Of a stretch of 64,000 bases of DNA, positions 17,987-54,865 are shown in pieces. The notes below the pieces were generated by a model. That model ran no database searches and had not been told where the DNA came from. It saw nothing but the letters and a program-made list of their open reading frames with translations. Location of the stretch: the NCBI GenBank assembly GCA_030704615.1, contig CM060731.1, positions 56,482,001 through 56,546,000 of the forward strand, written 5' to 3'. Each line of letters begins with the position of its first letter. Position 1 is the stretch's first letter. Source of the stretch: Takakia lepidozioides. Lineage: Eukaryota; Plantae; Bryophyta. The translations under genes and the position numbers were made by a program.

Positions 17987-20900
17987 CTAGCAGGCATCCG
18001 CAATGAAATCCAATGACGTCTTAGCTCTAGGAATTCTGAGCTTACGGTGCCTCCAGTTTACTTTCGCATCTTCAGAGCCCACCGGGGATTTGCCATTGGT
18101 CGGGGAGGACGTAGTGCCAGGTAATGGACGATTCTGAAGTCCTTGTGCAGAGGATGTGATCCTTCCCCCAGGAGAGATCAAAGGAAGCGAAGAGCTCTTG
18201 CCGCCTCCTCTCACTGCACCTGTCACAAGCTGCAAGCAAAGACCCCCCCACGCCTTGTACCCCTCAGTCATCAGATCTGCAAATATTTTATGCAGCAACG
18301 ATCTGATGCTGGGGCAGCACCCCTCAAACAAAAAAGAACATCTGGACTTCCAGAGAGCCCACAACGTATGAGCCCGCAGGCAGGACTAGACCGGGCAAGA
18401 GTCCCAAAGATTACCCCGGGCCCAGTTTAGTGAGCAACAGCAAAGGGGATTGAAAAGAAGCAGCCCTCCATTTAGAGTAGAAAGTAGACACCACTCTCCA
18501 CACCTTTGCAGCCAGAGGGTAAGTGGTAAGGCAATGCTCTATGGATTCCTCTTCATTAGCAGGGCATAAAAGATAGACTGGGTTACCATCAAACGAATGC
18601 GCTGCTACAGGCATGATTATGTTAGCAATTTTCTACAAAAAGGTTGAGATCTTGGAGGCTCTGTCTTTGCGCCATATATCCTTCCAGATAAGCTTCCACT
18701 AAATTCCAGCATTTGGGATGTGTTGCCACTTTCTCTCCCATTTGAGAGTGAAATTGGCTGATCCCAGCAGCAGTCTATATCCTATCTTTGCAGAGTACCC
18801 AAAGAATGGTGACCTCTTAGCATTAAATCAGGCCCACTCCCCTGGATCAAACTGCAGGCCCGCCAGAGGAATGGAAAGAAACTAGTGGAGTCTTAAGTGC
18901 GAAGCCCACTGGGCCTCCATTCCCGGCGGAGGGAGAGGAGTGGCTGCTCCTGAAACCGTATCAATTACCCTTATAGGGAACAGCTCATGCCTTTTAGCTA
19001 TCCCTGGAGCTAACACTGTCAAATTCCCAAGGGGAGAGGCCAGAAACCCCAAACCTGCAATGCCATCAGGGGCATATGAGATTGCCAGAAGCAAATTAAA
19101 CGGCAAACCTGAAGCACAGCCCAACCAAATTGGCATCGGCCAGGGATCATTCTCAGATAGCAATGTCGAGAGATAGGACGCTCCCTGACATGACATTCCA
19201 ACTACTGTTGACAACCCGCCTTGGAAGGGCAGCGCAAAGCAAATCTTGAGACACAAATTGACTTTGCTCCCAGATATTCGCCACATGACTGAACCCCGCA
19301 TTTTCCCAAGAGGCCCACTTCCTGGACAGATTAATAAGCGGAGCTGAGTCTAGATTGTAGTTATCGAACAGGGGCTGCCTGATGGCCTCTGCAAAAGAGG
19401 TAGCTCTCCGCTGAAAAAGGTAGGGTCTTAGCTTAAGCCAGGCACACCAAATTGAGTTCCAAGCCAGAGAACCTACCTGGTGTGTGTGCTTGGTGCCATG
19501 AACGAGCCATTTCAAAGAGGGGGGCCATAAACCAGAGGTCCTAGGTGCTGCGCGAACGAGATGTTCACGGATGAGCTTGCACCAAGGGCTATTGGCCAGC
19601 CAAAAGGAGCGGGGGATCCATCTTGCCAGAAAAGCAGTGATCTACCTCTCTGGGTCCAGAATCTCCAATCCACCTTCCAATTTGGGACGACAAAGCTGGG
19701 CCCAAGAAATCAAGGCTCTTCTTTTAAGAGCCGCTGCCGTGCCCCCCCAAAGGAAATTCCACAACAACACCTTAATTGATTGGACCACTGGTAAACCCGG
19801 ACTCCAAACCGAAGCAAAAAACCAAATTGCAGCGCCCAACAATATTTGGTTGAGAACCAGAGCTCTGCTGCCAGCGAGAGCTAGGTCGAGCTCCAGTATG
19901 CAATGTTCATGCGGAGCTTCTGTAGCACTTGCTCAAAGAGCTGCTCTTCCGAGATGTCATGCCCGAATTGAAACGTGTATGAACCTGGCCATCTTCCAAC
20001 CATCTTAACCCCAGGTCAGCACCCCACGGGGGCAATGCATGGCTGCAGCAGAGTCAGGCTGTTTTGAGAGGAGACCAACCGACTTTGACCAGTTCACCTT
20101 GAGACCCAAGGCCAGGCAAAAGGTGTCCAAGGCGGAGCATGCCCTATCCACATTCTGAGTAAAGCTATTGTCAATCAACATTACAGTATCATCTACATAC
20201 ATAGAAGTCTTCACTGGAGGGAAGAGGCCATGACGGGGGGTTTAAACCAATGAGGTCTTCTTTTCCATCCAGGAAATGCCCAAGGCAGTCCGCTACCAGC
20301 AAAAACAAATAAGGGGCAAGGGGACAGCCCTGTCTCACAGACCTGTGCAAGGAAAAGGAGGTAGGGATGAGACCATTAACCACCACTTTACTGGAAGCAG
20401 ATTTGTGGGAGGGGGTGAAGCCCGACCACATTATGTTTGTTTGCGTTTGCAATGCATTTGCGAGCCTGCTGGAGAAGGGAAAAGAGGTCCATGGTTGCAT
20501 CGTCAATGCTGGACAAGGTCGAGGACAATGTGGTGAGGGCACCTTCTTCTTCGACCTATTTCAGCCTGTTTTGCTTTAGGGTTCAGCCTCGGCCCTGAAT
20601 TTGCAGCACGAAGCTCTGGCATGAGTTTTACAGATCCTTCACGATGGTGGGACAACCGCAATCACAAGGTGCGGCGTTTTCTTAATGTACGTGGTGAAGA
20701 AGTTTGTCCATCCCGCAAATGTGGGCTCTTGGCTCCTGATAGTACCATGATTTGGTATTCTAGGTCATGTTTATAAGGTTCTTGGGAGAGTCAGCTTGGT
20801 CTTACTGGCCGTGTTTCAATCTCTACCCGCTCAGCTGCACCGTGGTAGTTCTCATGGACCTATTTCAGCCAACCTGACTATAGACACAAGGAGCACACAC

Positions 20901-22720
20901 AAGAGGTCTTCTTGGGTTCATGGTCAATCTAATCCTCCATGGGTCCCACCCCAAGCTCATTCAGCCTAAGAACGCTCATTTTGTATCGTTGTGTATCACA
21001 CCTGCAGCAGCTTTAATCGAGAATGTTAACCCATCTCAAGAAGGGCCCTTCTAAACCAGCTTGATCAGAACTCTGTTAAGAAAATCCCAGCTGATATTAT
21101 CAAATGCCTTTTCAAAATCTAGCATGAGAAGAGCCAGTGGCTGGGCATTCTTTTGAGCCAAGTGCAAAGCCTCTTTAGCAAAGAGAATGTTGTCCAAAAT
21201 CATTCTGCTTCTAACAAACCCAGTCTGCTCTAGTCTAATGATGGCTGGGAGCAGGGGTTGGATCCTAAGGGCAAGGGCCTTTGCAATTACCTTATAGATG
21301 GAGTTCAACAACGTGATCGACGGCCGGTAGTTTGAAACTACGGATCTCTCTTTTTGAAGATGAGGGTGATCAACCCTTGGGACGTCTGCGAGGGCATGAT
21401 ACCTTTCTCCAAGATATCATTAGTCATGGCAAGAAAATCATCCCCCATCGTGCCCCAAAGCCCTTTAATAAATTCAACAGGAAGGCCATCCAATCCTGGT
21501 GCCTTACCTGGGCTAAGGGAGGCCAAAGCCTCATTCAGTTCCGTTAGCGTGAAGGGGGCTCCCAGCAAAGCCTTTTCTCTATCAGGAAGGAATTGAATGC
21601 AAAACATAATTAGAGGCAAGACTAGATTCTGGTGAGTGCTGATGCCCAGCAAAGAGCTTGGCAAAATAATCCGCTGCCAGGCTTGCCATGTTCTTGGCAG
21701 AAGACTGCAGCCCACCATGAGAATCCACCAGGGACACAATAGAATTAGCCATCGATCTCTATTTAGCCTTCATGAAAAAATACTTGTTCATTTTTTCACC
21801 TTTCAATGACCAATTAACTCCTGCTTTTCTCCTCATAGAGTCCTCCCTAGATTTCCTCAGCTCCTGCAGGTTTGACTTAGCACGGTTGTAAGCTAACAGG
21901 GTGTACGGGCCCTCGTTTTTTCCCTCAATGAGTTCCTGACACACCTCCAAGCATTTTAACAGACACTTTTCTTTGAGCTCTTTCCAAGGCAAATTTCCTA
22001 GAGAGCTCCTGACTTGCCTTGCGGGTGGCCTGTAGCTTTTCTAAAAACCTCAGGGTAGGAGAGAGGAGATGGTTACCAGAGGACTTCCAGATGAGGGACA
22101 AAGACTCCATAACTTCTTGGTTTTTTAGGAAAGAGGGATTGAGCTTGAAGTACCCCCTTCCTTTGGGACGCACCCCAGGGGCCATGAAGGCCAATTTAAT
22201 CTCAGCATGGTCAAAACCAGGCAGGATAGGCCCCAACGGGAATATGGAGGTCCAAGAGAGAATAGTTGGGGAGCATTAAATCCTGTCCAACTTATATTTA
22301 AGCACAACAAATCCCAGAATTCAATCCTCTCCTGAACCAGATTAGGGGCATACACATTTATAATCCCAATCTTATACTGCTCCCTAGGGGATGCGAAAAC
22401 ACCAAATTGCGCCCTACACTGAATCCACACCTCATGACAACCAAAAGAGGGAAGCAATGAGGGCGAAATAAGAATTGCAGTACCCCCTCTGGCATCAGCC
22501 ACTAAACGGTTCCACCAGGCTGCCTGAAGCGGCCAGATCGAATTACCTAGGTTTGCGATATTAAAGTGATATTAACATCACCGAGTTAGTGTTCTTGCAA
22601 AAAACCCACAGAGCTAGACGAGATAAGAGGGGCAGCCTAGTTCCTAATCCTTGACCGCTTTGGAGCTGACACGTTCGACCCTAATCCCCTAATGTTCCAA
22701 GATCTGAGCGTGAAATTCAT
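17987..22720 (-). pseudogene. LINE ORF2 (APE endonuclease, RT, zf-RVT), frameshifted
   Basis: RSWNIRG, INVYAPN, DHA, KAPGLDGLPVEF, LDFEKAFD, RQGCPLAPYLF, YVDD, ISWAQLCRPKLEGGL, CPANEEESIEHCL, WALWKSRC. Confidence 0.9.
20401..21005 (+). other. 605-bp insertion in the LINE RT carrying a PPR (PLS-type) gene fragment
   Basis: AGCAG duplicated at 20396-20400 and 21006-21010; RT reads RWVNIL..|..ASSKVVVNG across it; ~20409-20515 encodes EGVKPDHIMFVCVCNAFASLLEKGKEVHGCIVNAG. Confidence 0.7.
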
Positions 22721-25200
22721 GTGAAGGGGAGGGAGAGGCCCGAGAGCAAGTCCCGAAATGATGCAGGCCCATAAGCAGAGAAGTGAAACAGGGTGCGGTT
22801 GTCTGCCGGAGGGAGAACAGAGAGCCACCGGGGGTGGAGACAGGAAGTGCGTCAGCCTGAAGACCGCGACTAGGATGGAGCCCCTGGTTTTTTGCTTAGA
22901 CCCAAGGTCTTCACCTAGCGGTTCTTCTTCAACATAATGCGATAATATAGGAGTGAACCCATGAATCCGAGGAACGTTGCCACCTCCTGCAGCTTCTGGC
23001 CCATGACCTCCGGAGCCAGGCTGTCAAAGAACCAAACCGGCAAAACCCGAAGGAAGGCGTGATCCCTGACAAGCACCAGACATCTTTTGCAAGAAACTGG
23101 GTCCGCACAACAGATGAAGAGGGGCGTGGCTGAGTAAGGCATGCTTACCACGGACACCGGGGCCTCATCTGATCTAGCGGAGGGAGACCGCCCGTAAGGG
23201 CTGACAATCAAGGACGATTTGGCCGCGTTTGCCCTGTAGCCTGCAGATTTTCATCTCCAGTAGTGGGTACCTGGACCGATGTGTTATGACCCCCCCCTAG
23301 AATGGCATCGACGATTGCAAAACCTGCTCTGAGTATCTCCTTGCTTTTAATCACCCCCACGTCAAGAGGATGTGTGTCTTTGAGGGTGCGTTTGTGAATC
23401 CAAGCACTGTGAGGCACTTCCGAATGCAAGCGCAACACCTCATCGACTGCTAGAACGAGCAAGACATGGACTGTCGAGAAATCGTGGTCCGGGGAGTTCT
23501 CCACAAAACCCCCGAAGTGTGCCACTGCCTTTTGCGATAGCTGGAATTGGAAGCACCTAGTGGCAAAAATTTCCCTTGTCACCCATAGCACCATATCAAC
23601 CTCTTGACGTGCATGGAACATCGCCGCCACTTTTGTGGAGACCCAAGAGCCCACTATCCCTTTATCTCCACCCGAAAGACATATCGCAGGGGAGCCATCC
23701 TTGTGCCTATAGATGATCCCGGGGAGATATGGATTGCAGCAGTACTTTTAACCACAACGTTCTTAGGAGACCATTGTCCCAAAGAAAGTCCTGCAAAAAA
23801 TCTTAGAGCCAGACAGTTCGTGGCCAAATTGTCAATGGGGGCATCCATTGCAAGTAATCATAGAAAGGGAACGTAGCCGGGTGGGGGGGGCTTCTGACAT
23901 GACGAGAGAGCAACACCGGCTTGGGACGCCCGGCAGGAGAAGTCACCCCAGAGGAGCAAAGACGCTTGCGCTTGTGCGTTCTGCCCGTCGAGGAGGGTGA
24001 TGCTGAAGCTGCTAAGTTGCATTGATCCCGAGAGGGGCGTGGAGAGTGGGTAGCCCTCACCAGGACCGCCTCATTTGCCAACTTTTCCTCCGGCTGAGAA
24101 GAGTCCATTGTCTCCGATCTGCGGGGAGCTTTGCCCGTCCTAGCAAGCGGGCACTCCGACTTGACATGTCCTTCTTCGTTACATGCAAAACAAATAACAC
24201 TTAGCACTTCTTCTTTGATAAGAACAGAGATGTAAGATCCGTCCAAAGTAGGGAGCTTTATGCTTTTACCACCCTCGGGCATCATCACAACCACCTTGGG
24301 GATACCTCCCTCCCTGGTAGACTCAGCAACATTATCTTTGATCACACTTAAAGGACCTCCTTCACCAGGGATAGAGACATTCAGTGATCCAATGTAAGAA
24401 CCAAAATGTGCTCCAATCTCTGGGAGGGAGGCTAGATAGTTGTCAGGCAAAAAAGGCAGACTAGCAATGACTGTAATTTGTAAATGACACCATTCTTGTG
24501 ACCCCATTCTTGGAACCAAGGAAACAGGTTGACCTTAAACCTGGACATAATCTTTGACACCAGAGCTTTTCCCGCCTCCTCTTTGGTGCTAAACATGACT
24601 CTGTAGAATCCCTTTCCCATGGACTAACAGAAATGATGAGTAAGACCCCCTTCAGTCCCAAAGTGCTATAAAAGCCATTTGCAAACCCATTTCCTCTCAT
24701 GCACTCTTCCATAAAAAAGTGAGCCAGAATTCCAAACTGAGTCATCTTTTTAGACTAGGACTTGACACAGTCCATGTTGAGCTGGAGGATCTGCTGACCT
24801 TCTTCCCCTGAGAAACCAGACTCAGACCATGGGACAATATCGAGACTTTGGTTGCCTGTCTAGGATTCGGAACCTCTACCCAGAAGCGAACCCAACAACT
24901 GCACCCCTTTCCCCTTTCCAGGCATTGGCCCTCTATTTCTCTGACCAGAATTACCCTGTTTCCTGCGCTGCGAGCTACCTCTCATTGCCATCAAAATAGA
25001 TCATACAGAGGGAGCAAAGAACAGACCCGCGAGCTGAGGGGCAAGGTGAGAAAGCACGACCTGAACACCAAAATATGGCAGCGGGAGTCAGTCTTCACCG
25101 GGGGTGCGGTGACTGGTCGTCAAGCAATAACTGCAGATCCCTGTGAGCTCGTTCATTGGCGGATTCACAAGGGAAGGGGGATGCGTATCATACCACTACC
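22717..25200 (-). pseudogene. LINE ORF1 (DUF4283-like region, CCHC knuckle, long C-terminal extension), frameshifted
   Basis: MGKGFYRVMFSTKEEAGKAL...FPW and CFACNEEGHVKSEC; broken ORFs 23654-23848, 23208-23654 and 22915-23211 continue to a stop that overlaps the ORF2 ATG. 5' boundary approximate. Confidence 0.75.
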
Positions 25201-29221: not shown

Positions 29222-29403
29222 CGGTGGACCTTCTAGCGGACTGGGGCAGGTGCTCACAGTCTGCACGTAGAGTGGACCCCCCAGCGGACTTGTAGAGGGG
29301 ACCCTCCAGCAGACTAGACTATCCAATGGACCCTCCAACGGACTTGCAGAGTGGATTAGATTGCAAAGTGGACCCTTCAGCAGACTCTCTAGAACAGACT
29401 AGA
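29222..29403 (+). repeat. Subterminal tandem motif (gtggaccc..cagcggact) of the MULE; gypsy target site, resumes at 40256-40290
   Basis: About 5 copies of ggaccc(t)ccagc(g/a)gact; the empty site cagactagactatccaatggaccc occurs intact at ~29310-29332. Confidence 0.7.
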
Positions 29404-29560
29404 TGTCGTGCGCATACATATCGCTACACAACTACATCGTTGTCCAAAACCACACAACACATGTGCACGCCATACACTATTAGTCCAACCACTATGCTAC
29501 AACTAGTCAGTCACTAGGCTGCCACTATGGTGCCCACTATGGCAGTCACTAGTCCACACA
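29404..29560 (-). repeat. Repeat A, terminal copy (157 bp)
   Basis: tgtcgtgcgcatacatatcg...agtccacaca, duplicated at 29891-30078. Confidence 0.95.
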
Positions 29561-29561
29561 A

Positions 29562-29888
29562 TGATAAAGAAGAAGAATACAAGCACAAGCTCATGCGAGC
29601 TCACAAAGCTGAAGCATAAACTCATGCATATATAAACTCATCACTCAAATACAAGTCAAGCCAAGTGCACCCCACGCCATGGGGAATCCACACTACGGTG
29701 CCATAACTAGGCGCGGTGAGGCTCAACTCGAGAAAGATGAGCCTCCCGCGTTTGCCGTGAAGATAACCACTCCAGGGCCTAAATCTGCCTTGATCCCTGG
29801 ATTGACACTTGGGCCAATCCCAAATGTCAATATGTAAAAGCTAGCTATTTCCTAGCTAGTTTCACACTAGTGATAAAATAACTTGACA
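29562..29888 (-). repeat. Repeat B, internal copy (327 bp)
   Basis: tgataaagaagaag...aataacttgaca, duplicated at 39929-40255 with 8 substitutions by my count. Confidence 0.95.
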
Positions 29889-29890
29889 GC

Positions 29891-30078
29891 TGTCGTGCGC
29901 ATACATATCGCTACACAACTACATCGATGTCCAAAACCACACAACACATGTGCACGCCACACACTAGTATATCACTAGTCCACCACTAGTCCAGCCACTA
30001 GTCCAACCACTAGGCTACAACTAGTCAATCACTAGGCTGCCACTATGCTGCCCACTATGGCAGTCACTAGTCCACACA
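29891..30078 (-). repeat. Repeat A, PPT-adjacent copy (188 bp)
   Basis: Matches 29404-29560 plus 31 bp of extra ccactagt microrepeats. Confidence 0.95.
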
Positions 30079-30334
30079 ATCGCCCCCTTAGCTGGTGCTT
30101 AGGTCCCTCTAAATCTAGGTAGCCACAAAATGTGATAGTGACCATAGCCTCACTAAGTCCTCCACCACTGTCCCACACTCAAACTCGATATATCAAGAGG
30201 CCGGGTGCAAGAGTTGCCCCATCGTTAGTCGTCGTCTTGCAACCTGTGAACTTGAGCCTGGGATCTCGTGTATTGACTCCTATGATCTTGGCCTCCTATG
30301 TCTTGTTAGCTGCCTCTAGTCATATCTACTGCCA

Positions 30335-30485
30335 CTATCCCAAGCAGTGTGGACATAACCAATCTCCATCAGGAACCCTCTCAAGAGGTGGTGTCAAGCA
30401 TCCCATACCCAACCTCTTGAGCATCGATCACACACCACCATGGTGGCTGCCCCTTTGGCAGACCCACAGAGCATGCACCTCAAAC
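30335..30485 (-). pseudogene. PHD finger at the C-terminus of the gypsy integrase
   Basis: CMLCGSAKGAATMVVCDRCSRGW-[frameshift at the His position]-MGCLTPPLERVPDGDWLCPHCLG*, which fits the C4HC3 spacing. Confidence 0.9.
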
Positions 30486-31290
30486 CTGCAGGTACCACTG
30501 CCAAGTTTGGGTCAACTCTGCCATCGACATTGAGAAGGTAACATGGCGCACAATTACGCATATGGTCTTTCCAAGTCATGCCATCCCGACCCTCCAAGAT
30601 CAGGACTCCTGAGGGCAACACCTCTCGAACCCTCAGAATAACACGCCCTGCAGTGACATCCAGGGTCGTAGGAGCAGTCTGCTACAAATAAACATAGTCA
30701 CCAGGGCTAAACCTCCAAACCCCAGGACGATATCCTCCACCACGTATAGTGGCATACCTCAACGTATCACGGTGGTGTGCAATGGCAAGGTTCTCAAAAG
30801 CCATGGGCATGATTTTCTTGAACAACTCTGCACGCTGATCACATGCACATACCCACACGTCCGGATCGTCAAGGTTAAGGACTTGAGCAGTGTCCATACG
30901 AATGGCTGCAGGCAAATCCGACTCTCGGCCAAAGAGAAGGAAATATGTTGAGAAGGAGGCAAGTAATGCTTGTTTGCTGAACCTGTAGCCCATGGCTAAC
31001 AAAGGCACATGAAGATCCCAATCTCCTAGGTGTCCCTTCTGCAAGCCATACTTGCGCAAACCCATCTTCACCGTCTGAACAACTCTCTCTGCCGAGCCAT
31101 CGGCCTCAGGATGATCCCGAGAAGTGGTGCGGTGGTCTATCAAGGCTTTATCACACAAAGCCTGAAACTCCCCCAAGAACTCTTTCCCTTGCTCCGTGAG
31201 TACCTTAGCTGGAGCACCGAATTGGCTAAGCATACGATCCAAGAATGCATATGCAGCCCCCTTACTAGCCTTGTCAGGCAATGGAACCAT
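30486..31290 (-). pseudogene. Gypsy DDE integrase (core and SH3-like part); HHCC domain and first Asp deleted
   Basis: FGAPAKVLTEQGKEF...TTSRDHPEADGSAERVVQTVK...YFLLFGR...FSPGDYVYL; abrupt DYLR|MVPLPDK junction at ~31290. Confidence 0.88.
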
Positions 31291-31499
31291 GCGGAGGTAG
31301 TCCAACACAGTCGAATCCTCATGTATATCTTTGGCACCACCTGGCTCATCAATAGTCTCAGGGTCCTCAGACACTCCGTCTACAGTCATCCCTGTTGTAG
31401 GTCCAACCTGATCTCCCGATTCCAAGATACACAAAAATGCAAATGCGTGCCATCTCGACACCATCTCCTCGTCTGTCTCACCATGCCACCGAACTCCAG

Positions 31500-32900
31500 T
31501 GTCATCATGCTGGCTCGTGCATGGATTGCGACTCAATCCATCCGCATCCCGATTGACCAAACTCGGTCGATGCACAACCTGAAAGTCATATTCCTGGAGT
31601 ATGAGTACCCACCGTGCAAGCTTCCCCGTAAGCTTGTATGACTCCATCAACCACTTGAGTGGCTGGTGATCCGTGACAAGGGTGAAGAGATTGCCATATA
31701 GATAGCACCTGAAGTGTGTGCACGGCCCACACTGCAGCTAAGCACTCCCTCATATGAGCTGTACTTAGCCTCTGCAGCGTTGTTCGAACGGCTAGCATAA
31801 GCCACTACGAACTCTCTACCCTCATCATCCACCTATGTGAGCACCGCTCCAAGCCTCAGCATGCTCCAATCCGTATGCAGCTGAAAGGGACGCACCCTGA
31901 TAGGTCGTCTCAGGATAGGCGCCGAGGTCAACCTCGCTTTGAGCTCTTGAAAAGCTCGTTCCTGCTCATCTTCCCACTGCCACTCTTGGTCCACATTGGT
32001 CAGCTTGGTTAGAGCCTTTGCAATGGCACTAAATCCCTGGACAAATCGTCTATAATAGTTTGCCAATCCCATGAAAGCTCGAACTCGGCTCACATCCGTG
32101 GGGCGTGGAATTTGTGCAATGGCCTCTACCTTAGTCTGCTGTACCCCCAATCCTCCAGGATATATCATGTGACCCAGATACTCAATCTGGTTGTGGAAAA
32201 ACTTGCACTTCCCTGGATGCAACTTCAATCCGTGCGCTCTCAAACGCTCCAATACCACCTGAAGGTGTCTCTCATGCTCCTCCACCGTAGCACTAAAGAT
32301 GATGATGTCATCTATGTAGCACCGAGCAAAGTCCACCCCTGCTAGAATCCTATCCATGACTCTTTGAAACTCTGCAGGAGCATTCTTAAGCCCAAATGGT
32401 AAGAACCGCCACTGATATAGGCAATCCTTGGCATGCTCATTGATCCCCCAGAATGTCGTCTTCTACTTGTCCGCCTCCTTGATCGGCAACTGGTGATATC
32501 CGGATCGTAAATCCAAAGTGCTAAAGACCTTAGCATGCCCGATGGCATCAAAGATCTCATCTGGTGTTGGCATGACATACTTATCGGACTTGGTCTAACG
32601 ATTTACAGGCCGGTAATCACCGCACATACGTCTTTCCGTCCAATTGCCATAGATATCCTTCTTGGCTGGCATCATTATGGCTGAAGCACACTCTCCACCA
32701 GAGAGCTCCACCAAACCAACCTCCCAGAGATCTTGAGTCCTCATCTGAATCAAAGACCTCTCCATGTCACTGTATCTACAGGGTCTCCGAAAGATTGGCG
32801 TGTCAGTGGCCAACTCAATACGAATCTCTTGACCCTTCAGTGCTCCCAAGTCCTTCAAACTGAAGGCAAAGCAATTCCTGTAAGCCCTCAGGAACCGCCG
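31500..32900 (-). pseudogene. Gypsy reverse transcriptase and RNase H
   Basis: RMCGDYRPVN, TLDLRSGYHQL, PFGLKNAPAEFQR, CYIDDII, FMGLANYYRRFV, LHTDWS, VVAYASR, KLARWVLILQEYDF, DADGLSR. Confidence 0.96.
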
Positions 32901-33339
32901 TATACGTCGTCTCTCTCCTCCGGTGACGATAGGTCCAATGTCAGGCTCCCAATTGTCCTCCGTAACTGCAACCTTAAGTCCAGTGGGCTTAGAGGTAGAA
33001 GACGCGTCTAGTGGTTGCTATGTTGCAACCTCTTGAACAGTACTCCATGCCTGCTCAATCAATGATAAGGCCTCATCCTGCCCTATCATCTCATCCTCAA
33101 GGACTTCCTCAACCCAAGAAAAATCCCCAACCTCATCCATCACCGCCGCCCTGGCTGCCAACTCCCTCTGAACCTCGAGCACCTCCCACGTGTGCCATGG
33201 ATGCCTGCACCCCGTGGTCCTCTCATGCTCGCCCCCACTCACTGCTTGTACCGTCTCGGTAGGCAAATAGACCATCGAGGAAAGTGTACTCCGCACTCTG
33301 CGTTGCTCAGCCATAGCCAAGCTGATAATCCAGGTCAAG

Positions 33340-34225
33340 CAATTGAGATCCATTGCTTGCCCCAACACCTGACGATGCGATGCCTCAGAAAGAGACGACA
33401 CCGCCGTGGTACCAGTGGTAAAACCCATTGCCTGCTCACGCTCGTCAACATTAGGCTTCACTAACTGCAGTGTAGGTAATGTTGCTCGTGGTTGACCCAC
33501 CTTGTTGACCACTGCCAAAGACGAACGGTCATCGTGTTTCACACGCTGAGATTGTCTTCCTGTGTCCAAAATGCTATCCACTGTGAGGTGTGCTGGCCGC
33601 TGCATCCTATCAAATGTACGCTTGAGCAGTGTGGGTTGTATCAAGTTAGTCCACCATAGCCGTGGACGATGAGCCCGTGACCCCACTGTAGTTGCATCTA
33701 GCAATACTGCTGATCCAAGCCACGATCGGACTTGATGCACACCGGCCATCACCCTGGCCCGAGAATCGCCCATCAGTGGCACATTCTCCAAGATGTTATA
33801 CTGGAGATACAGCTTGATGAAGTTGCAAGTGGGGCAAAACGCACCCTCTCCCAAAACAGACCCCCGACCTCGACTCGTTAGTCTCGCAATCCATTGCCAT
33901 GCCCGGCTGATGAATGGCCTTGCAGGGCCAACCTGCCACTACCAGATCGATGGAGCCAAAGTCCGCTCCAAATCCTGCTCCAACAACGAAATGTCTGCTG
34001 GCAAGGCCTGCTGATATCCAATGCGAATTGCAAGACACCCGACAGCAACAACTCAGGGTACTGCTGCACCAACTGAGCAACATGGCGAAGTGAAACGTGT
34101 CGTGCAGTCTCATCCCTCTCCACATACATGTAACGCCGAACTCGTACACCTGCCTGTAACACAGCAGTCAATCCGGTGCTGATCCCGCCAAAACAAGTCC
34201 AGAAAGACAAATGCCTTCATCCGGA
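33340..34225 (-). pseudogene. Retrotransposon-encoded DNA (cytosine-5) methyltransferase, DNMT3-like, frameshifted
   Basis: Motif I FLDLFGGISTG, II YVERD, IV DLVVAGWPC(Q)GHS (PC at 33922-33927), VI ILENV, VIII AHRPRLWWTN, IX/X EREQAMGF..GTT....SEASHRQVLGQAMD, all in canonical order. Confidence 0.9.
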
Positions 34226-34599: not shown

Positions 34600-35030
34600 C
34601 TCCCTGACTTCCCATCCAGGCCTATAGGAAGTTGAACTCCTCCCAAAATCCAGGATGAAGCCCGGAGGTACAACACTGCCCCACCAACCAGGACATCGTA
34701 CGAGACCGCGTTTGTCACAATGACCTGGCTCGCATCACTGAGCCATCTGTAGGGTGATCCGTCGCGTAGTCTGATAGGCCAACTCACACCGTGTCATGCC
34801 CCAAGCCTGCTCCGATCCTCCTAGAGACGTCTGTATCTGGAAATGACAAGGCTCCATATCCGCCTCTGGTGAGGCCCGAAGCCTGCAATAGCAGCTCTGC
34901 CCAGCATCAATGGCTGAGCTCCCGAGTCCCACGCCCGCAGTGGCCGTTACCGCGTTGCCTCTTGCCGGTCCACTCAAACAGAGAATGTCATCCTGGTTGT
35001 CTAACATGACAACTCCAGGTGTCACCATGG
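34600..35030 (-). pseudogene. Retropepsin aspartic protease
   Basis: WDSGAQPLMLGRAAI at ~34885-34932 and VTNAVSYDVLVGG downstream. Confidence 0.75.
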
Positions 35031-35699
35031 TCGCTCAATGGCTGCGCCTAGCTGACAGCTCCATCAACCTGGCAGCTGCAGCTTGCCATGGCGCCGCCGT
35101 GGCAGTCTTGACACATCAAATCGAGGATCCCTCCAGCACTACACAAACCTCCCACTATCTCCGTAGAAGATGAAGGAACCTCCCCACTCTCACAGAGTGT
35201 AGCTGCCAGCCTGAACACCTCAGCTGGTCCTCTATCCTCGGCGTCGCAATCATGGTAGCCGAGAACAATGGAGCCTGACACACAGATGTGGCCTGCTCGC
35301 AGCAGCACACTAGCTGCCGTAGCCTGCAACACTAGTTAGTGGTGCTGCCCGTGTAGCTCTCCCTAATGCATAATAACCTCCGCCTCGGTAACAGTCGGGC
35401 GAGAACTAGGTGCCATGGATGGCGTCGACACTGTCTCCGCCAATGTGAATGACTGAGGAAGCCTAGCCTAACGGCTTGCCCTCCCCACGCTAATGGATCC
35501 AACTCCGCCTCTCTGCACCTCGTGGCTCAGGAACTCGTGCTGCTCTCGAGTCACGGCTGGGCAACAGACTCCACCTGCACTAAGTGTAGTGCTGCTCCAC
35601 ACATGAATCCCATGCCTCCCATATCTCCTCCCTCAGGAGCAGGAGGTGGACCATCCGCTTAGAGCGGTAACCTACCCTGAGCTGTAGCCATGGCAGCGA

Positions 35700-37200
35700 G
35701 CCTCTGCTCTAGCTGCTGAAGCCGTGTTGGCCATGCCTGGTCAACACTACCTGCCTCCGCGTCCTTGGCCATGTTGAGCTTGCCCTTGCCTCACACCTCG
35801 TGGCTGGCCACCTCGTCCTCTTTGGGCTCCATCCACCTCGGCCCCGGCCCCATTGTTCCCTTGGAACTGGCCTGGGCGCAACTCAGGCTGCAAAAACATA
35901 ACACTGGGCCTCTCCATGCCCGTGCTTGCCACAATGCCCACACTGCAACTGTGCAGGCTGTACATGTGCCGGCCCTTTGGCCTCCCTCTGGGCAATCCTT
36001 CTTGACATGGGGGTCCTCCACATGTCCTGCACACCACATCCACCCGTTGTTGGCCAGCAAATGAAGGGAAATACCCCTGCATCTGAGGTCCTCTCTGCCC
36101 TCCCTGAGCTTCACCTGAGGCCCCCTTGTTGCCTTGAGCACGTTGAGGTAGTGGTTGGCTAGAGCAACCACTACCTCGTGGTGTCTCCCTAGCAAATCCC
36201 ACCATGACCACCGTCCTCCATCATGTTGACTCTATTCCATCCGCTCTGCCAGCAAAAACACATTTACTAAAGTGGGTTGGGCCGCTTGTAGGAGAGTTGC
36301 ATCCCGCACCTTCTCCTCAGCTCCTTGTCCCAATATCCCATACCAGAATTGGACTGCCTGAGCTTCCGTAACCCCTTGGGTTACATTTATCAAGCGCCTC
36401 ATGCGAGTGAAACCTCCCTCAAGCTCTCAGTAGGCTTTCCGTTGGAACTCTTGCAAGCTCCGCAACTTCTCTGTCCTCACCCCTTGGTAGTTCTCTCTCA
36501 ACTCTTCGAAGAACTCCACAACAGGGTTGAAGGCAGACACGGGTACTGGTGCTGGTGCGGTAGTGGCTTGGGTGGACGTCGTAGCTACGGTACCACACCA
36601 GTCCCACCCTGTCCACTGCTGCTTGGCTGAAGCTGCCGCGGTGCAGCGGCAGGTGTAGCCACTGCCCTCGTGGCTCTAATGCCCCTAGTGATGAGACATA
36701 GTCGGGTGACGCGGTAACATCCTCCACTCCTCAATCTCAACCTCATGCCCATGCCCCCACCTGAACTCATGGTAATCATCCCTAGGCGGCCCCTCAAGGT
36801 GCTGAAAAGCCCATTCCATGCCATGAAAGGCGTAAATAGTTTTGGATTGCGCATATTGCTACAAATCACACAACACCTATTAAACTCTTGGATAAAATCA
36901 TCCAACTCGATGGTGCCCACCGCCCCAGAGTACCTTCGTGGCCCCGTGGGAGCTCCATACATCTCCTCCATTGTGTCCCACAACAATGGCAAGGCAACAA
37001 CTTACTTACACCCGCCGTGTAAGTCCTCTGATTCACAATCCGAATCAGAACCTTCCGTAGAAGACACAGGAGGTGAAGGTGGCCTAACCGCACACCTCGT
37101 CTCGTGTACCCACTAGTATCGTTAGTGCTCGAACCGGCACTACTGTCCCCAACGACTAGTGACATCTCCGTGTTGACAAACTGTCACTCATCCGGTCATG
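35700..37200 (-). pseudogene. Gypsy gag with CCHC knuckle, frameshifted
   Basis: PRRYSGAVGTIELDDFIQEF; CRTCGGP-HVKKDCP knuckle across a frameshift at ~36010. Confidence 0.7.
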
Positions 37201-37899
37201 AATATGTCCCTACCCCCTCTCCACAAGGTAACCGGGTAGAGAACCTGTTGCGGCTTATGGTTTGGAATACTAGGTTCCTAACATAGCCTACACCTGCACC
37301 TGTATCCACCGCAAAACACTCCTCCTATGGTTGGCTGTCATCACCTTCCAACCTCACCATAGGAGAAACAATGATTGTCTGACTGGTCATCACCACCCCA
37401 GCCTCACCATCGACAGCATGCTCTAGGACTGGCCGTGATCAAATCCAGACCAATCACCTATAAAAAACAACGCCCACACAAAACTAACATGGCGCACAAT
37501 CAAGCATGCAGGTATGGAGGAGATCCCAACACAAGAAATCAGAACGACAACTCCCCCACACCACCAAAACAAACTCCACGGTGTTGCTCCTGCAAGGACA
37601 ACCCAGCCCAAACCCGGACTGACTCTTGCCTCCACCTACGGAAAGGTCTTGGCCTAATGAGAGGGTGGAAAACTACGAGGAAGAGAAGCTAAAACAATGC
37701 CTAACCCAGCATACCCTCATCCCAACACTCTTTTTCTCATCTCTTCTCTCACTTGCATGACCATGGGAATATCATGAAGATACTCCTCAAACCGCCCTCC
37801 ACGAGCTTCAAAATTCGGCCTTCAAGACCACATGCCAGTCCTTAGGTAGTCCACCAGTGCCTCCACGAGTCAGTACAGGCCATCCACAGGTCAATACGG

Positions 37900-38395
37900 G
37901 CCACCACAGACCAGCATAGGCCCACATAGATCACTGGTCACAGCCATCACAGCCATCACAAAGCCCCACACAGGCCACAGCCCATCAGCAGCCCCAAAGC
38001 CACAGGTCACATCCTCCTGTCACAGCCTACACACAGGTCACAGGATCACAGCCCTATAGGCCACAGCCCGTCATAGCCCCAAAGGCCACATGTCACAGCC
38101 CGTTGTAGCCCCAAAGGCCACAAGTCACAGCCTGTCACAGCCCATCACAACCCCAAAGGCCACAGGCACAGCCGGGCACAACCTGGCACAGCCTGTCACA
38201 GCCCTACAAAGGTCACAGGGGTCACAGCCCCAAAGGCCACAGCCCATCACAGCCCGTCACAGCCCGTCACAGCCCTTTACAAGTCACAGGGGTCACAGCC
38301 CCAAAGGCCACAGCCTGTCACAGCCCCTCATAGCCCCTCAGGCCACAGGGCACAACCTGTCACAGCCCGTCACAACCCATCACAGCCCCATCCAT
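37900..38395 (+). repeat. Minisatellite built from (t)cacagccc and ccccaaaggccaca units in the gypsy 5' leader
   Basis: Many imperfect copies are directly visible. Confidence 0.9.
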
Positions 38396-38789
38396 GGCCA
38401 CTCATGGCAGTTTAGCCATTTCTCCAAGGGGTTTAGCCACGCCAAGCTAGGGTTTGTGTCTCTTGGACTCTAGGCTTCTTTGCACCGAGCTATGACGGCT
38501 GTGAGGAAATCACAAGGTATTCTTGCTCTTTCAGCTCCCACACACCACCAATAGTAGCCCTAAGCCATGAGGAAGATGGTTGCCACAACCAAGCCTTCTT
38601 TCTCACTTAGACTCCCCAAACACGCCACTAAACTCGATGGCAAACAACCAAGCCTTGCTGGTTTCCAACCCTTGTGAGCACTCATTCAAGCGTTTTCCTT
38701 AGCCATAGCATCTATCTTAGAGCCTATTCCAGCCCCCTACAACTGCCACTTCAAGAGCCATGCTCTATCTAGGCTTGAGGTTGAAACCC

Positions 38790-39250
38790 CAACTTAGAAC
38801 ACGCTCTACAAGTGTCGGACTGTCACATAAGAGCAGATCAGCCCCTTACCTTCTCTTCTAGTTCTCTAAAGCTTGAAAACAAAAGCCCAATGGACTGAGG
38901 CATGCTCCACACATGCCCCACTCTCACCACAAGAAATTAGCCCCTTTGCTTCATTTCTTGCATCCACCAACCTGAAAATACAAGCTTCAGCGGGCTGGAA
39001 GCATGCTCCACACATGCCCTACAGGGAAACCAGCCCTTCCTTCTTTCTTTCTTGGACTCCCAACCTGAAAGTACAAGCCTTCAACAGGCTGAAAGCATGC
39101 TCCACACATGCATTGCCTTCACATAAGGGAAGTCAGCCCTTCCCTCTTCCTTGCTTGCCCTCCAAGCTTGAAGATGGAAGCTTCAATGAGCTGAATACAT
39201 GCTCCACACATGCAACCCCTTCACACAAGAGGTATCAGCCCCCTATCTTG
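38790..39250 (+). repeat. ~100-bp tandem repeats with core catgctccacacatgc in the gypsy 5' leader
   Basis: Core at ~38900, ~39001, ~39095 and ~39198; more diverged units at ~38800 and ~39505. Confidence 0.8.
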
Positions 39251-39928
39251 GCTCCTTGGCTCCTTGATGCTCTCTAAGACAAGACTAATCACTCCACAGC
39301 CTTTGCCAAGCTCCTGAAACCCTAAGGCTTACATTCCAGCCACAAAGACACTCCTCTTGTGGTACAAGAGCTCTTCTTCCAAGCTCTGAAACCCTAGGTG
39401 CACATTCCATGGCCTTGCCGCACCTCTTAGCTCCTGTTCCAGCCCTGCTCTTGCCATGATAAGAGCCCTCTCAATGCTGAAGCTCGAGATTGAAACCCAA
39501 TCTCAACATACTCCACAAAGTGCACTGATTTGCCCCAAGCCAAATCAGCCCTTTCGCTTGGTCTTGCAATCCTTCACACAATGAAAGCTCGCATTCCCAA
39601 GTCCAGTTCTCAGCTTTGCCACCAAAGCTACTCTAACCTGTTCTTGACTGGTCCTCTTCTCAATCGTGCTTGCTCATGCATATACACAATCTGAAACCAT
39701 CAAGGTGTTCTGGAATTACCTGCAGCATGGTGCTTTCATTTCTGAAGCTGAAAATCGAATGCCAAGGTCTACCACCTCGTAACCCACATCGCCTCCGCTT
39801 CTAACAACCAAGAGCTCCACGGTGCTCCTTGCATAACAACTTGGTTTCTTTCATTCTCAAGCAAAAACCACGAGTGCTACAACTGACTCGTATCTGGCAC
39901 TCACAGATACGAGCTGATATTTCTCGAG

Positions 39929-40255
39929 TGATAAAGAAGAAGAATACAAGCGCAAGCTCATGCGAGCTCACAAAGCTGAAGCATAAACTCATGCATATAT
40001 AAACTCATCACTCAAATACAAGTCAAGCCAAGTGCACCCCACGCCATGGGGAATCCACACTACGGCGCCATAGCTAGGCGTGGTGAGGCTCAACTCGAGA
40101 AAGATGAGCCTTCCGCGCTTGCCGTGAAGATAACCACTCCAGGGCCTAAATCTGCCTTGACCCCTGGATTGACACTTGGGCCAATCCCAAATGTCAATAT
40201 GTAAAAGCTAGCTATTTCCTAGCTAGTTTCACACTAGTGGTAAAATAACTTGACA
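39929..40255 (-). repeat. Repeat B, 5'-terminal copy (327 bp)
   Basis: Near-identical to 29562-29888; ends TGACA followed by TSD TAGA. Confidence 0.95.
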
Positions 40256-40390
40256 TAGACTATCCAATGGACCCCTGGGCGGACCTGGTGGATGGGCGGT
40301 GGGCTTATGAGCTAACCCCATGGGCCATACTCGCGGGGCACACAGACGCATTGAAGACGCTCTTATTGAAAAATCGTTGGCTTATCAATC

Positions 40391-46484: not shown

Positions 46485-48037
46485 TGGTTACAATCTCTAT
46501 GGCACAATCTGGTACTTCCAGAAGGTACTTAATAGAAATCACATTTTGGGTGAGAGAGAATGTATGAATGTACGAACTCATGAGACATTTGCCAATAGCC
46601 TTGTGGCCATAGACCCTTTATCCAATTTCGGTGGAACAAAAACGGGAGACAGGGCAAGGGAGTGGAGGTTAGGTTATGAGAACATGGTGCAAAGTGATTT
46701 TCAGGGCTTTTGCTGTTGGGGCTGCGATTGAAAAAGACCCACAGGAAATTCCTGGAGAGATTAAACAGACTGAATCAAACAGACAATTTACATTTAAGTT
46801 GGGACATTATGGACTGCTCTGAGTGGATGAACATCTGCTGTATCTTTAGTGGGTCATGATCACATGTCAAAGACAACCGGTTCAATTCTTGGTCATCGGG
46901 AGCAGCCCTACAGCACTGATGCGCAAGGCGTAGTAGAATGCTGATCTATTCTGTACCCTGCGGCCATGTTTCACAAGGTCGGCTTACACGACAGAACCCT
47001 GCCTACAGCCAACGTGGCCCAGCGTACAACCTGCCAGGCTATAGAGCCCGTAGACTCTTCTTTTTGCTCCATCTGTAAAGAGCCATGCACTCTTCAGTCT
47101 GCTCCATTTTGAAATTCCGTGAAAGGTTGTGGGCTCTCTAAAACCGTCTGCCAGTCTTATAATCTTAGATGGGTCAGTGGTCGAGGTGGAAAGAATCTAC
47201 ATACAGGCCTCGACAGTCTAGGGACAAACCTACTTAGTCGTTGGCCTTTTCCAGTGGAGAACGATGATGATAAGCCGGAGGCAACGCCAGAACCGCGAGT
47301 CAAAGGTGAAGGCCTACCTCAACTTCAAGCCATGCGAGGTTTCCTTTGCAGGTTCTGCTTCGGTTCACTGCTGGAACTCGGCCTTCATCAAATAGAGACT
47401 TAGTTCTGGTTGCAGCTGCTGCTTTGGCAGTTAACCCCTAAAGGACGAGCTAACTTTTGGGAGTTTTCCCAAAAAGTGGGCCATACCCTCCATTGCTGAG
47501 CTTTAACTTCCTGCCCCCTTACATCCAGCTGGATGAACCGTTCCATTTCATCCCTACCTACTACATGAAGGTCCTCAGAAAATTGTAGCACTTTTGACCA
47601 TTCCATTTAGTAGATTGGCCAAGTTGAAACCATGAACCAAAAAAAGAGAGGAAAAATTGCTTTGACCATGCAAGTTTGATGATTTTACATTTTTTCTTGA
47701 AGAAATGGCCTCCATAATCCGGATAAGGGGCAACCAACAGGTCATCTCCCAGAATCTCAAACCCAAGATGCCAAAAATATGGGGCTGCTTTGTATGTGAA
47801 ATCTGGGGGATAAAAAATCTTGTTTTGGCTTCTTTCCCAAGTACACCCATGAGGTGACATTTGTTTTTCAATTCCTCTGGTAGTAACTGCATAGTAACGT
47901 TTCATGGTGCCTTGTCTACATTTTTTGGCATTATGATAAATTTTCAGCCCTAGCTGTTATCTTGAACATTGATCTGACTACCACGTTGGATTTCGTGAAA
48001 CCTTGGCACTTTGCAAAATTCTAGGGATAAGAGCTTT

Positions 48038-50700
48038 CACTACTGCAAAAAGGGGGGGTTTATGACGGCAGCCATGCCCCACGCCCCCACGCCCGCGCGG
48101 CGCGGAGCGCCGGGGCGTGGCACGGCGGCGCCCAGTGCTGCTTGTGACGCCACCGTGTGGCAACCCAACGCCCAGGTGTCGCCCCCCAGCGTCGGGATCA
48201 TCCTGCGACGCCAGGACGTGACAAGGTGGCCTCAAGGGACCATATACTCCATGCAATAGAACATAGCTTCTTGTAATGTATACCCCTCTGCCATGCTACC
48301 CTCCAGATGCGCCATTTGTCTTACAAATGCTTTCAAAGTCTATATGTAACGCTCAAGGAAGTATATCCACTGAGAATGAACGGGGCCGGCTGTCGACGAA
48401 GTTCATCCAACTTGACTAATTACAACAGACGAGCCGATAGGGACGGAACATCGCCCAACTGTTCCTCAACTGTTCCTATGGGTCATCCCTCCGTATGAAG
48501 TTCAACGAAGACGGGGTCCATGGTTTGAAGTCTCATGACTACCACAATATTTTGCAAGACATCTTGCCCATTGCAGTACGTGGGACATTGACTCCCGAGG
48601 TTCGCGAGACAATCTTCAGATTGGGAAGCTTGTTCCGGTGGATTTGCTCCAAAAAATTGGAAAAAATGGATTTTTCACGCATGAAGAAGGAGGCGGCGGA
48701 GGTAATGTGTATGTTGGAGATGAACTTTCTTCCCTCTTTCTTTGACATCCAAGTGCACTTGGTAGTGCACTTACTTATGGTGACTATCACATTATTGTAA
48801 TCTTCCTTTGTCCATTGCCAATGTGTGTGCCTATACTTTCACCGTACAACACCCTTTGGGTCCACACCATTTTATTTGGCCCATAGATAGCGCATGCGAC
48901 CCTACTCCTCAAGCTCATTTCTAACACCGAGAGAATCTTCTTTTGCAGCCACTCCCTTCTTTGCCGACGTGCCATGAAGAACCCGAAAAAAGGACAAACA
49001 AACATTCTTCTCAATATGCATGGGATCTAGAAGATAACGAATCTTCAGGTCCTACATATGTCCCCACTTTACACAAAAATTTGACGTGAAAGTGACAATG
49101 CAACGCATACCAAATGTGCAATATCACATGCATGCACATGAATATTGACGGTATTTTTGTGGAATACGTATCGCCCAATATGACAACTTGTAGAAGATTG
49201 AAAGTCGCTTTATGCCGGGTACCTCCACTTTACCGACCGTGCCCGCATGGGCCTCCTTCCATCGGTCTTCCCAAAACTGCCCAGATGGTGTCACAAGGGG
49301 GGGACGTATCTCCTCTTTGCCATCAAACAAGTATTTGTCTCTTCTTCTCCATCGATGGCTTATAGGAAGAAACTTGTGGTAGTTGGGATACACCATCTTG
49401 CGAAGATGGCGGGAGCTATGTGCATCAAGATCATCGTCACAATGCAAGCACGCATGGTACCCTATGGTGCTTAGCCCTGAGCAAACAATTAGTCATGTAC
49501 ACATCCCGCCACATTAGCCAAGTCAAGAAGGTCTCATGTGCATGGCCCATAGTGCCATCTACCCCACTACGGTGCACAAGACTGTTGCCTTGACAAGACT
49601 ATCCGACCTTGACAAGTAAATGTACGCGGGTTCTTCATGGGGAACATAATATATCTGGATAATCATGCATTGTCCAAAACAATATGCCTCTCATTTGAAA
49701 AGATTGTCCGGCCATAGGGTCAAGTGAAGCATCAAATGCCGGGACCCTCTTCCGTAACTCCTTACGTTCATCAACTAGAGGTCGCAAGTACGTGTCCATG
49801 TTTGCCACTTGTTTTTTCCCTATGAGACATTCAAATCATTGTTTCAATGCTCCACCAATATGCAAATTATACTACATAATGAATTACACGTCTTACTCCA
49901 TGAATATATCACTCATCAATTTTGCATCCGAATTGCGCCAGACAAGGCGCCTTCGTCGCTACGGGGCTCTTTCTAATGAACGGGAATGTAACATTGCTAT
50001 AATTGCACGAGATTTTAAGATGTAAAGTCCAAGGGACTATATATAAGGAGTGAGATTTAGACAACTGTCATGATCGTTGTCGATCATGTCATTTTCTCAT
50101 ACTCCATCTACAAAACTTCGTTGGTACACTTGCTTATTGGATAGGCAGTCTTTTTGATGTAGATAGCAAGACATTGTTACAATGTATGGGTAAAATGTCA
50201 TGATTGTCCACGATGCCCAAATAATAATAATAATAATTTAAAAAATGGATGAGAACGTTATGATCGTTGATGATCATGACATTTTTCTATGCAAATCATG
50301 CTTGCTGCACTTGCTTATTAGATAGACATTATTTTTGCTATAAACAACAATACACTACTATAGAGAATAGAAAAAACGATCATGACATTGCCATACCGTG
50401 TTGTAGACAACACCACACTATCATAAAAGATAGGGAAAATGTCATGATCGTTAACGATCGTGACATTTGCTTCCATCTCGAACCTATATATATAAATATA
50501 TATTTCTTCGATATGCAAATGTCACGATCGTTGACGATCATGAGATTTCCTATGCCCACTGCACGTCTAGATTGTTGCACTTTCTTATTGGATGGACGTC
50601 ATTTTGCTATAGACAACAAGACACTACCATAGAGAATACAATACACTATCATAGAGGGTAGGAAAAATGTCATGATCGTTAACGATCGTAAATGGGACAG
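48038..50700. mobile_element. CACTA (En/Spm) transposon relic with rearranged transposase
   Basis: CACTACTGCAAAAA terminus at 48038; + strand GLKSHDYHNILQDILPIAVRG...PSFFDIQVHLVVHL (DUF4218-like); - strand MDTYLRPLVDE, WTMHDYP, HRWRRRDKYLFDGKEE, KRLSIFYKLSYW (Transposase_21-like). No partner TIR found. Confidence 0.85.
50060..50692. repeat. Array of ~7 palindromic tgtcatgatcgtt.acgatcatgaca motifs
   Basis: Copies at ~50066, 50196, 50256, 50377 (half), 50438, 50518 and 50666. Confidence 0.8.
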
Positions 50701-53700: not shown

Positions 53701-53725
53701 ACAGCGATTTTAGAGAGGGTATATA

Positions 53726-54577: not shown

Positions 54578-54865
54578 TACATGTTTTGTCAAAAAGTCCA
54601 AAAAGTTAGCTCATCCTTTAGGGGTTAACTGAGGCTACACACCTACCTTAATGTTACATCCAAAATAATGAACCATACCACATTCACCTTGCCTACCACG
54701 ACATACATCAACTCAACAAATTGCGGAGTATTTCACCATAAGACGAGTTTAATGTTTTAGTAGGGGTTTTTTTGTTTTTGGATTTTGCAAAGTATGAAAT
54801 TTGAGCTTTGACCAAGCTATTTGAGTGACGGGTCAATTTTTCTTGCTTCTGCCTCCACATAGAAA

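Follow-up and report, generated by a model that had tools for sequence, protein, structure and literature searches.

A streptophyte Ty3/gypsy retrotransposon family with a DNMT3-type cytosine methyltransferase between protease and reverse transcriptase

Why retrotransposons carry an enzyme that silences them has been a question since 2018, and the known cases reside in algae that are hard to manipulate. The same question is raised by a 64,000-nucleotide stretch of the genome of the moss Takakia lepidozioides (hereafter the window, meaning the whole stretch analysed), in which an initial annotation, made from the letters alone, recognized the motifs of a cytosine-5 DNA methyltransferase (DNMT) within a retrotransposon. 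This report is focused on what the element is, whether the methyltransferase belongs to it, how much of the enzyme may be made, and on which DNA it may act.

The element in the window

Positions 40255-29404 (minus strand) constitute a Ty3/gypsy element of 10.85 kb, in which a cytosine methyltransferase of DNMT3 type lies between protease (PR) and reverse transcriptase (RT). Its components, from the 5′ to the 3′ end, are as follows.

40256..40259, minus: 4-bp target-site duplication TCTA, 5′ side; the same four bases follow the 3′ end
39929..40255, minus: repeat A1, 327 bp, TG...CA, element 5′ end
36972..39928, minus: non-coding leader of about 3 kb, with a hairpin just after A1
37862-38388 and 39023-39241, minus: tandem arrays of the leader
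35680..36971, minus: gag, broken, with zinc-knuckle-like remnants near 36033-35938 (tblastn to the Marchantia Gag-PR-DNMT protein P0009)
34615..35025, minus: aspartic protease, broken; DSGA from 34928
33303..34220, minus: DNMT3-type C5 cytosine methyltransferase domain, pseudogenised
33021..33302, minus: linker closing the Gag-PR-DNMT reading frame
33012..33020, minus: conserved in-frame stop in the read-through context TAG CAA CCA (UAG-CAR-YYA)
32905..33007, minus: tentative long-range RNA stem predicted downstream of the stop, with one arm at about 33007-32992 and the other at about 32923-32905
31926..32954, minus: reverse transcriptase with premature stops (PF00078, E 6.5e-25); YIDD 32318-32307
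31504..31922, minus: RNase H (RH; PF17919, PF17917), interrupted by one stop and one frameshift
30682..31299, minus: integrase (IN) remnant; about 140 codons lost, and with them the H2C2 finger and the beginning of the catalytic core (residues 575-716 of the pol of metagenome locus L077 are absent)
30344..30477, minus: C-terminal PHD finger, frameshifted (PF00628, a weak E 0.044 in the window; intact in L077, E 2.6e-10)
30080..30093, minus: G-rich site resembling a polypurine tract, immediately ahead of B1; present in 20 of the 29 loci examined
29891..30079, minus: repeat B1, ending ...GACA
29884..29897, minus: B1/A2 junction, palindromic GACA-GC-TGTC, joining copies of both element ends
29562..29888, minus: repeat A2
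29404..29561, minus: repeat B2, element 3′ end ...GACA, with a 31-bp deletion relative to B1
29400..29403, minus: 4-bp target-site duplication, 3′ side

The DNMT motifs lie in the order and at the place on the pol strand, between the protease DSGA and the RT YIDD, that the initial annotation had given: FGGISTG (34192-34172), VERDE (34123-34109), GWPC (33933-33922), ILENVP (33794-33777), AHRPRLW (33674-33654), EREQAMGF (33443-33420), and RQVLGQAMD (33374-33348), all on the minus strand. The series is not a chance occurrence. The annotation had further described the domain as broken only by small indels, and the damage is larger than that: a frameshift-aware alignment, with a natural relative as the reference and X written at the breaks, identified six frameshifts (about 34193, 34020, 33958, 33920, 33838, and 33798), the loss of 23 codons at about 33468, and an in-frame stop near 33880, and motif I itself is divided by a frameshift break between DL and FGG. 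Because the DNMT carries these lesions and half of the integrase is lost, the window element is a dead copy, no longer capable of activity. Assembly error is an unlikely origin of the frameshifts, since A1 and A2 are free of indels, a nearby transporter exon is open over 396 codons, and other copies differ from this one where it is broken.

Between A1 and A2 (97.6% identity) there are 8 differences in 327 sites, all of them transitions, and no indels. At a substitution rate near 1e-8 per site per year, the insertion would be roughly a million years old or less. The coding decay seems heavier than this age, which suggests that the copy may have been mobilised in trans from an already defective template.

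Several other features were observed in the vicinity. The leader arrays (37862-39241) consist of 10-71-bp and about 102-bp units, and the leader is approximately twice the length of that in a Sphagnum-like subfamily. The insertion site is a short host tandem repeat of 25 bp (29269-29403 and 40256-40290), of which an intact unit shows the empty site. Two decayed LINE-like elements, with RT, endonuclease, and zinc-knuckle matches, occupy 1-5100 and about 18000-24500, and nested inverted repeats at 47428-54631 are possibly DNA-transposon remnants. Host genes on the minus strand comprise an exon of a DRG-type GTP-binding protein (10449-10931; PF16897) and an NPF/PTR transporter (58587-61203; PF00854). 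A host gene assigns the host to Streptophyta, whereas its bryophyte-like affinity is drawn from the relatives of the element.

A methyltransferase shared by the family

The motif VI-X piece of the window matches 30 proteins (E 8.5e-64 to 3e-10, best 65% identity); the named ones among them are from Marchantia, Calypogeia, and Sphagnum, and the domain is intact in the Marchantia and Calypogeia proteins. The profile search proposed in the initial annotation succeeds with these relatives, as 17 of the 18 proteins scanned from the 30 pass the Pfam DNA_methylase cut-off, though the three DNMT fragments of the window alone gave no Pfam match and reached only E=0.034 against DNMT3A. A metagenome scan for the family produced 198 pattern matches; confirmation succeeded for 86, and 80 loci were retained; among viral contigs, 28 pattern matches included no relative of the family. 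The order gag-PR-DNMT-RT-RH-IN-PHD is found in the 80 metagenome loci as far as each extends.

The DNMT occupies the same position in these 80 loci, and the domain is a family trait under purifying selection and not a private insertion, two points that the initial annotation had proposed to examine. Pairwise comparison of three near-intact metagenome loci over 315 codons gave DNMT dN/dS values of 0.125, 0.124, and 0.106 (about 0.12), similar to those of PR (0.116-0.137) and higher than those of RT (0.051-0.065) or IN; between decayed copies the ratio is 0.39-0.63, and deeper pairs are near saturation. The initial annotation had also considered a loss of the catalytic Cys across the family; this residue is kept in 72 of 74 loci, as are the motif VI Glu in 70 of 75, the motif I Phe in 61 of 63, and the motif I Gly in all 63. 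Across 51 diverse sequences, there is little or no variation at Cys95, Glu138, and the motif VIII arginines.

The resemblance to DNMT3 that the motif wording had suggested extends to the family profile and the predicted fold. The profile of the 51 family sequences matches DNMT3A with E 2.8e-27, DRM with 1.3e-14, and M.HhaI with 1.5e-10, and the predicted model of the L077 domain (pLDDT 96) has its best Foldseek matches in DNMT3A/B/C (TM 0.73). Motifs I-X follow one another in order, with PC, ENV, and RxR, in the family; the arrangement is non-permuted, unlike that of DRM, as had been stated. The family domain is thus of DNMT3 type, with a fold modelled as DNMT3A/B-like. Mammalian DNMT3A/3B catalytic domains are the closest in both profile and fold at about 22% identity, and the family domain is devoid of PWWP or ADD.

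Five Marchantia gene models labelled "hypothetical protein" (Mp4g09160, MpVg00370, MpVg00540, Mp5g06330, and Mp5g06860) are intact Gag-PR-DNMT frames, two of them on chromosome V, and all six motifs checked are present in the five (P0009, P0332, P0333, P0339, and P0340). The integrase of L077 belongs to the DDE families PF00665 and PF17921, with no tyrosine recombinase detected there. Its PHD finger resembles those of CHD4, PHF21A, and KDM5, which read unmethylated H3K4; this likeness is mentioned as a lead only.

The nearest described element is KnitGypsy-Dnmt3 of the alga Klebsormidium nitens, whose DNMT3 is placed in Pol and whose repeats are DIRS-like (de Mendoza et al. 2018; PMC5890265). 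The K. nitens protein GAQ92009.1 has the order PR-DNMT-RT-RH-IN, with DNMT3 between PR and RT as in the present family, and the same placement, before RT or after PR, is found in Mesostigma and Closterium. In an RT tree of 64 element sequences (FastTree, midpoint root, no outside Ty3 lineage), one clade (support 0.976) unites the K. nitens protein with every PR-DNMT-RT element, and within it the window copy is sister to a Marchantia protein plus two loci of the Sphagnum-like subfamily (0.942); the DNMT tree, likewise of element sequences only, agrees with it. This placement, together with the relatives in Marchantia, Calypogeia, and Sphagnum, bears out the suggestion of a land-plant lineage. 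KnitGypsy-Dnmt3 and the family have in common a Gypsy element, a non-permuted intronless DNMT3, a DIRS-like repeat structure, and purifying selection (PMC5890265); they differ in that the hosts here are land plants and the DNMT ends ORF1 at a conserved stop, whereas it lies within the Pol frame there, as judged from predicted proteins. The DIRS-like repeat structure of the Gypsy-Dnmt3 lineage is present in the family, the legend in PMC5890265 giving no detail of it, and the passages of that paper on KnitGypsy-Dnmt3 make no mention of a PHD finger, stop codon, target duplication, or junction palindrome.

Other retroelements similarly carry a C5 methyltransferase, namely SymbioDIRS-Dnmt3, SymbioLINE-Dnmt, and EpiLTRs (PMC5890265; bioRxiv 10.64898/2026.05.21.726589). 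The first two belong to other element classes (tyrosine recombinase, LINE) and other hosts, and de novo CG methylation has been reported for SymbioDIRS-Dnmt3 (PMC5890265); EpiLTRs bear a DNMT4-related domain at the pol 3′ end together with DAM, also in other hosts (bioRxiv 10.64898/2026.05.21.726589). A second architecture, RT-RH-DNMT-IN-PHD, accounts for 91 of 268 classified proteins (with redundancy), including P0058, P0062, P0063, P0065, P0071, P0304, and P0311; its named members are from the chlorophytes Tetradesmus and Hariotina, and P0071, labelled as a bacterial metagenome bin, is probably eukaryotic contamination. In the literature consulted, no description was found of this sister group with DNMT3 between RNase H and integrase, nor of a land-plant Gypsy-DNMT3, its read-through, or its circle; for the land-plant case, the supplementary material of PMC12344493 and of the 2026 preprint may be relevant. 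Two later papers speak of "streptophytes", and their supplementary trees may include bryophyte sequences; the main text of a plant LTR classification contains no mention of methyltransferase or PHD (PMC6317226).

The conserved stop and the split repeats

The initial annotation had regarded the DNMT as embedded in the polyprotein between PR and RT. Its location between the two stands, but it is not part of Pol: it closes the Gag-PR product, since in the window a TAG (33020-33018) parts the DNMT frame from RT. The single continuous gag-pol frame that had been anticipated is, in the intact relative L077, one frame from 973 to 8227 whose sole stop is an in-frame TAG at 5083, directly after the DNMT linker. 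In a survey of 60 sequences spanning the DNMT end and the RT start (two others, with large insertions, were left out), the homologous site holds a stop in 55 (40 TAG, 15 TAA), is unreadable in four, and is without a stop in one (L026); many loci of the largest, Sphagnum-like subfamily are the same insertions resampled, and the stop is represented by about five independent lineages. The TAG is invariant in 10 of 10 aligned sequences with flanks that are unalignable, and ORF2 is in frame with the DNMT in 46 of the 60 loci. Consistently, of the 35 database proteins in which PR and a complete DNMT are present and RT is not, 33 end 55-185 residues past the DNMT, P0057 among them through a frameshift. 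A stop in algal members was considered and set aside, as P0057 ends in this manner; P0067, which ends within the linker, might have one. No stop interrupts the passage from DNMT to RT in the predicted proteins of K. nitens (one model), three of its close relatives, and Closterium (two models); the stop therefore looks derived.

The sequence following the stop is reminiscent of a known recoding signal. The UAG-CAR-YYA motif (PMC2754532; PMC3159437) is the tobamovirus read-through signal and is functional in plants (PMC2754532). The window, L074, L075, and L077 carry the complete hexamer after the stop, and L052 falls short of it by one C>T; of 10,396 TAG triplets in these loci, only 38 have this context. 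The largest subfamily differs: it contributes 50 of the 55 stop-bearing loci, groups with a Sphagnum protein, and has a CAA-CCC-like context, not the full motif. A 3′ stem that stimulates read-through has a precedent (PMC3159437), and here a stem is predicted in most sequences except L075; it begins about 8-11 nt past the stop that bears the hexamer and covers about 100 nt. Its arms pair with -13.5 to -24.7 kcal/mol within, versus -6.9 to -11.2 kcal/mol between, the two main sequence groups. Folding stability was rejected as proof, as the stem is no stabler than neighbouring windows (z -0.4 to -2.6, with upstream controls down to -4.2); the stem is therefore no more than suggestive as a read-through element. 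Covariation by column was left uncounted, the arms being out of register. Separately, in most lineages the 120 nt upstream of the stop (33021-33140 in the window) are more stable than shuffled versions, with z -3.3 for the window and -4.2 for L052.

The conserved in-frame stop after the DNMT assigns the enzyme to Gag-PR, and read-through is likely required for RT-IN. On this sequence evidence, pol is quite probably made by read-through of the stop, and we infer that DNMT production goes along with that of Gag and exceeds that of RT and integrase. An unlikely alternative is that pol is obtained by splicing or re-initiation and that the stop merely ends ORF1. An AUG lies 6 nt after the stop in the largest subfamily, so that its CAA-CCC context fits re-initiation as well as read-through, and the Marchantia models P0005, P0007, and P0011 join DNMT to RT by skipping the linker. 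Conversely, no such AUG is present in the window, L074, L075, L077, or L052, the frame relation between DNMT and ORF2 and the CAR context are conserved, and the joining Marchantia models are predictions.

The ends of the element are organized as A1-internal-B1-GC-A2-B2 with TG...CA termini, that is, as split direct repeats (A…B-A-B). Self-comparison of 32 sequences recovered the complete layout in the window, L009, L046/L047 (one insertion), L057, and L060, and a partial layout in five more (four B1-A2-B2 and one A1/A2). Target duplications are 4 bp long and exact in four of the five complete insertions, with one mismatch in L009, and host contigs break off at the same element boundaries. The B1/A2 palindrome recurs, with up to 3 mismatches allowed, in 12 of 29 loci (five were too short), and L074 and L077, both distant, are among the 12. 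An ordinary pair of 300-bp LTRs was rejected once B1/B2 and the duplication were found. The gag-PR-RT-RH-IN order and the DDE integrase of the family loci and L077 are those of Ty3/gypsy, whereas in place of two equal LTRs there are split repeats, and in place of a tRNA primer site after A1, of which none is evident by eye, there is a hairpin; no tRNA genes were found within the 64-kb window. Retrotransposons of the PAT/Ngaro/TOC1 type also have split direct repeats, A1-ORFs-B1-A2-B2, with an internal copy of the end junction. The family differs from them in its DDE integrase, TG...CA ends, and 4-bp duplication, with no tyrosine recombinase detected; assignment to DIRS/PAT/Ngaro, which is defined by a tyrosine recombinase and no target duplication, was rejected accordingly.

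This layout could be generated from an ordinary reverse transcript. If the true LTR is B+GC+A, starting at the G-tract and ending where A1 ends, ordinary reverse transcription would yield BA-internal-BA, and circularisation followed by cutting of one palindrome would produce exactly A-internal-B-A-B. Foamy virus integrase can cleave a palindromic 2-LTR junction (PMC1180852). Integration from circular cDNA opened by integrase at the palindromic B/A junction is proposed at even odds, the rival being a DIRS-like route in which B2 is carried in the RNA. The A2/B2 junctions, precise in eight loci and imprecise in L060, fit inheritance through RNA as well as fresh circle formation, and by either route the junction must be cut. 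In L060 (about 10837-10855), the A2/B2 junction contains filler and a remnant of pre-B1 sequence, like a repaired circle junction.

Proposed function and implications

The explanation that we favour, with a probability of roughly 55%, is that the family encodes Gag-protease-DNMT3 as far as the conserved stop and RT-RNase H-integrase-PHD by ribosomes reading through it, whereby particles would be loaded with abundant methyltransferase. The protease would presumably release the DNMT inside the particle, and the enzyme would methylate new cDNA before or at integration, so that the insertion would enter pre-methylated, already marked like host heterochromatin. For the cDNA as the substrate, the balance is likewise only slightly favourable. 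Against this explanation, L026 is without the stop, hosts with their own DNMT3 could methylate new copies unaided, and KnitGypsy-Dnmt3 gave no methylation in yeast, a result that its authors regard as inconclusive (PMC5890265).

A less probable reading retains the same anatomy and lets the abundant DNMT act in the nucleus on integrated copies or host DNA, for self-limiting silencing or chromatin remodelling. Gag-level expression exceeds the need of one cDNA per particle, and host-beneficial self-restraint is raised in the Discussion of PMC5890265, whereas fusion to Gag and PR puts the domain in the particle by default, as established in retroelement biology. Decayed copies are depleted in CG and CHG (CHG observed/expected 0.54-0.68 in three loci versus 0.79-1.01 in five others), and thus were methylated by something; host MET1, CMT, and DNMT3 account for methylation of old copies (PMC10952607; PMC6453930), and CpG depletion was dropped as a sign of self-methylation because it is not specific. 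It is improbable that the family retains the domain only for DNA binding or structure, with dispensable catalysis: the inconclusive inactivity of the Klebsormidium enzyme in yeast and a DNMT dN/dS above that of RT or IN are compatible with this, and the near-invariance of Cys95, Glu138, the motif VIII arginines, and the motif I Phe and Gly speaks against it. Private capture of a host DNMT3 fragment evolving neutrally, to which the heavily broken window copy might have pointed, is refuted by the position shared among the 80 loci and named liverwort, moss, and algal proteins, by the dN/dS of about 0.12, and by the abundance of the family, with 11,786 contigs from one run, possibly of the same source as the window, mapping to 1.6 kb of the element.

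Returning to the favoured explanation, a broader and distinctly tentative proposal is that of an old green-lineage Ty3 clade in which Gag-level DNMT3 fills the particles and methylates the cDNA, which circularises and integrates by cutting of a mid-LTR palindrome, the split-repeat provirus being a 2-LTR circle opened at an internal att site.

These findings have practical consequences for genome annotation, as Gag-PR-DNMT gene models can inflate DNMT counts in bryophytes, and elements of this kind will be cut at the wrong places by LTR finders built around a pair of equal LTRs. The conserved stop indicates the amount of enzyme made, and the split-repeat ends point to an unusual integration route. 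With the Gag-PR-DNMT models of Marchantia, the question of why a retrotransposon carries a silencing enzyme becomes testable in a model plant with existing methylation mutants, one of which, Mpmet, has de-repressed transposons (bioRxiv 10.1101/363937). If the broader proposal is true, the family would represent a eukaryotic retroelement that has a DDE integrase and necessarily passes through a circular, pre-methylated intermediate, and its intact Gag-PR-DNMT frames are at hand in Marchantia.
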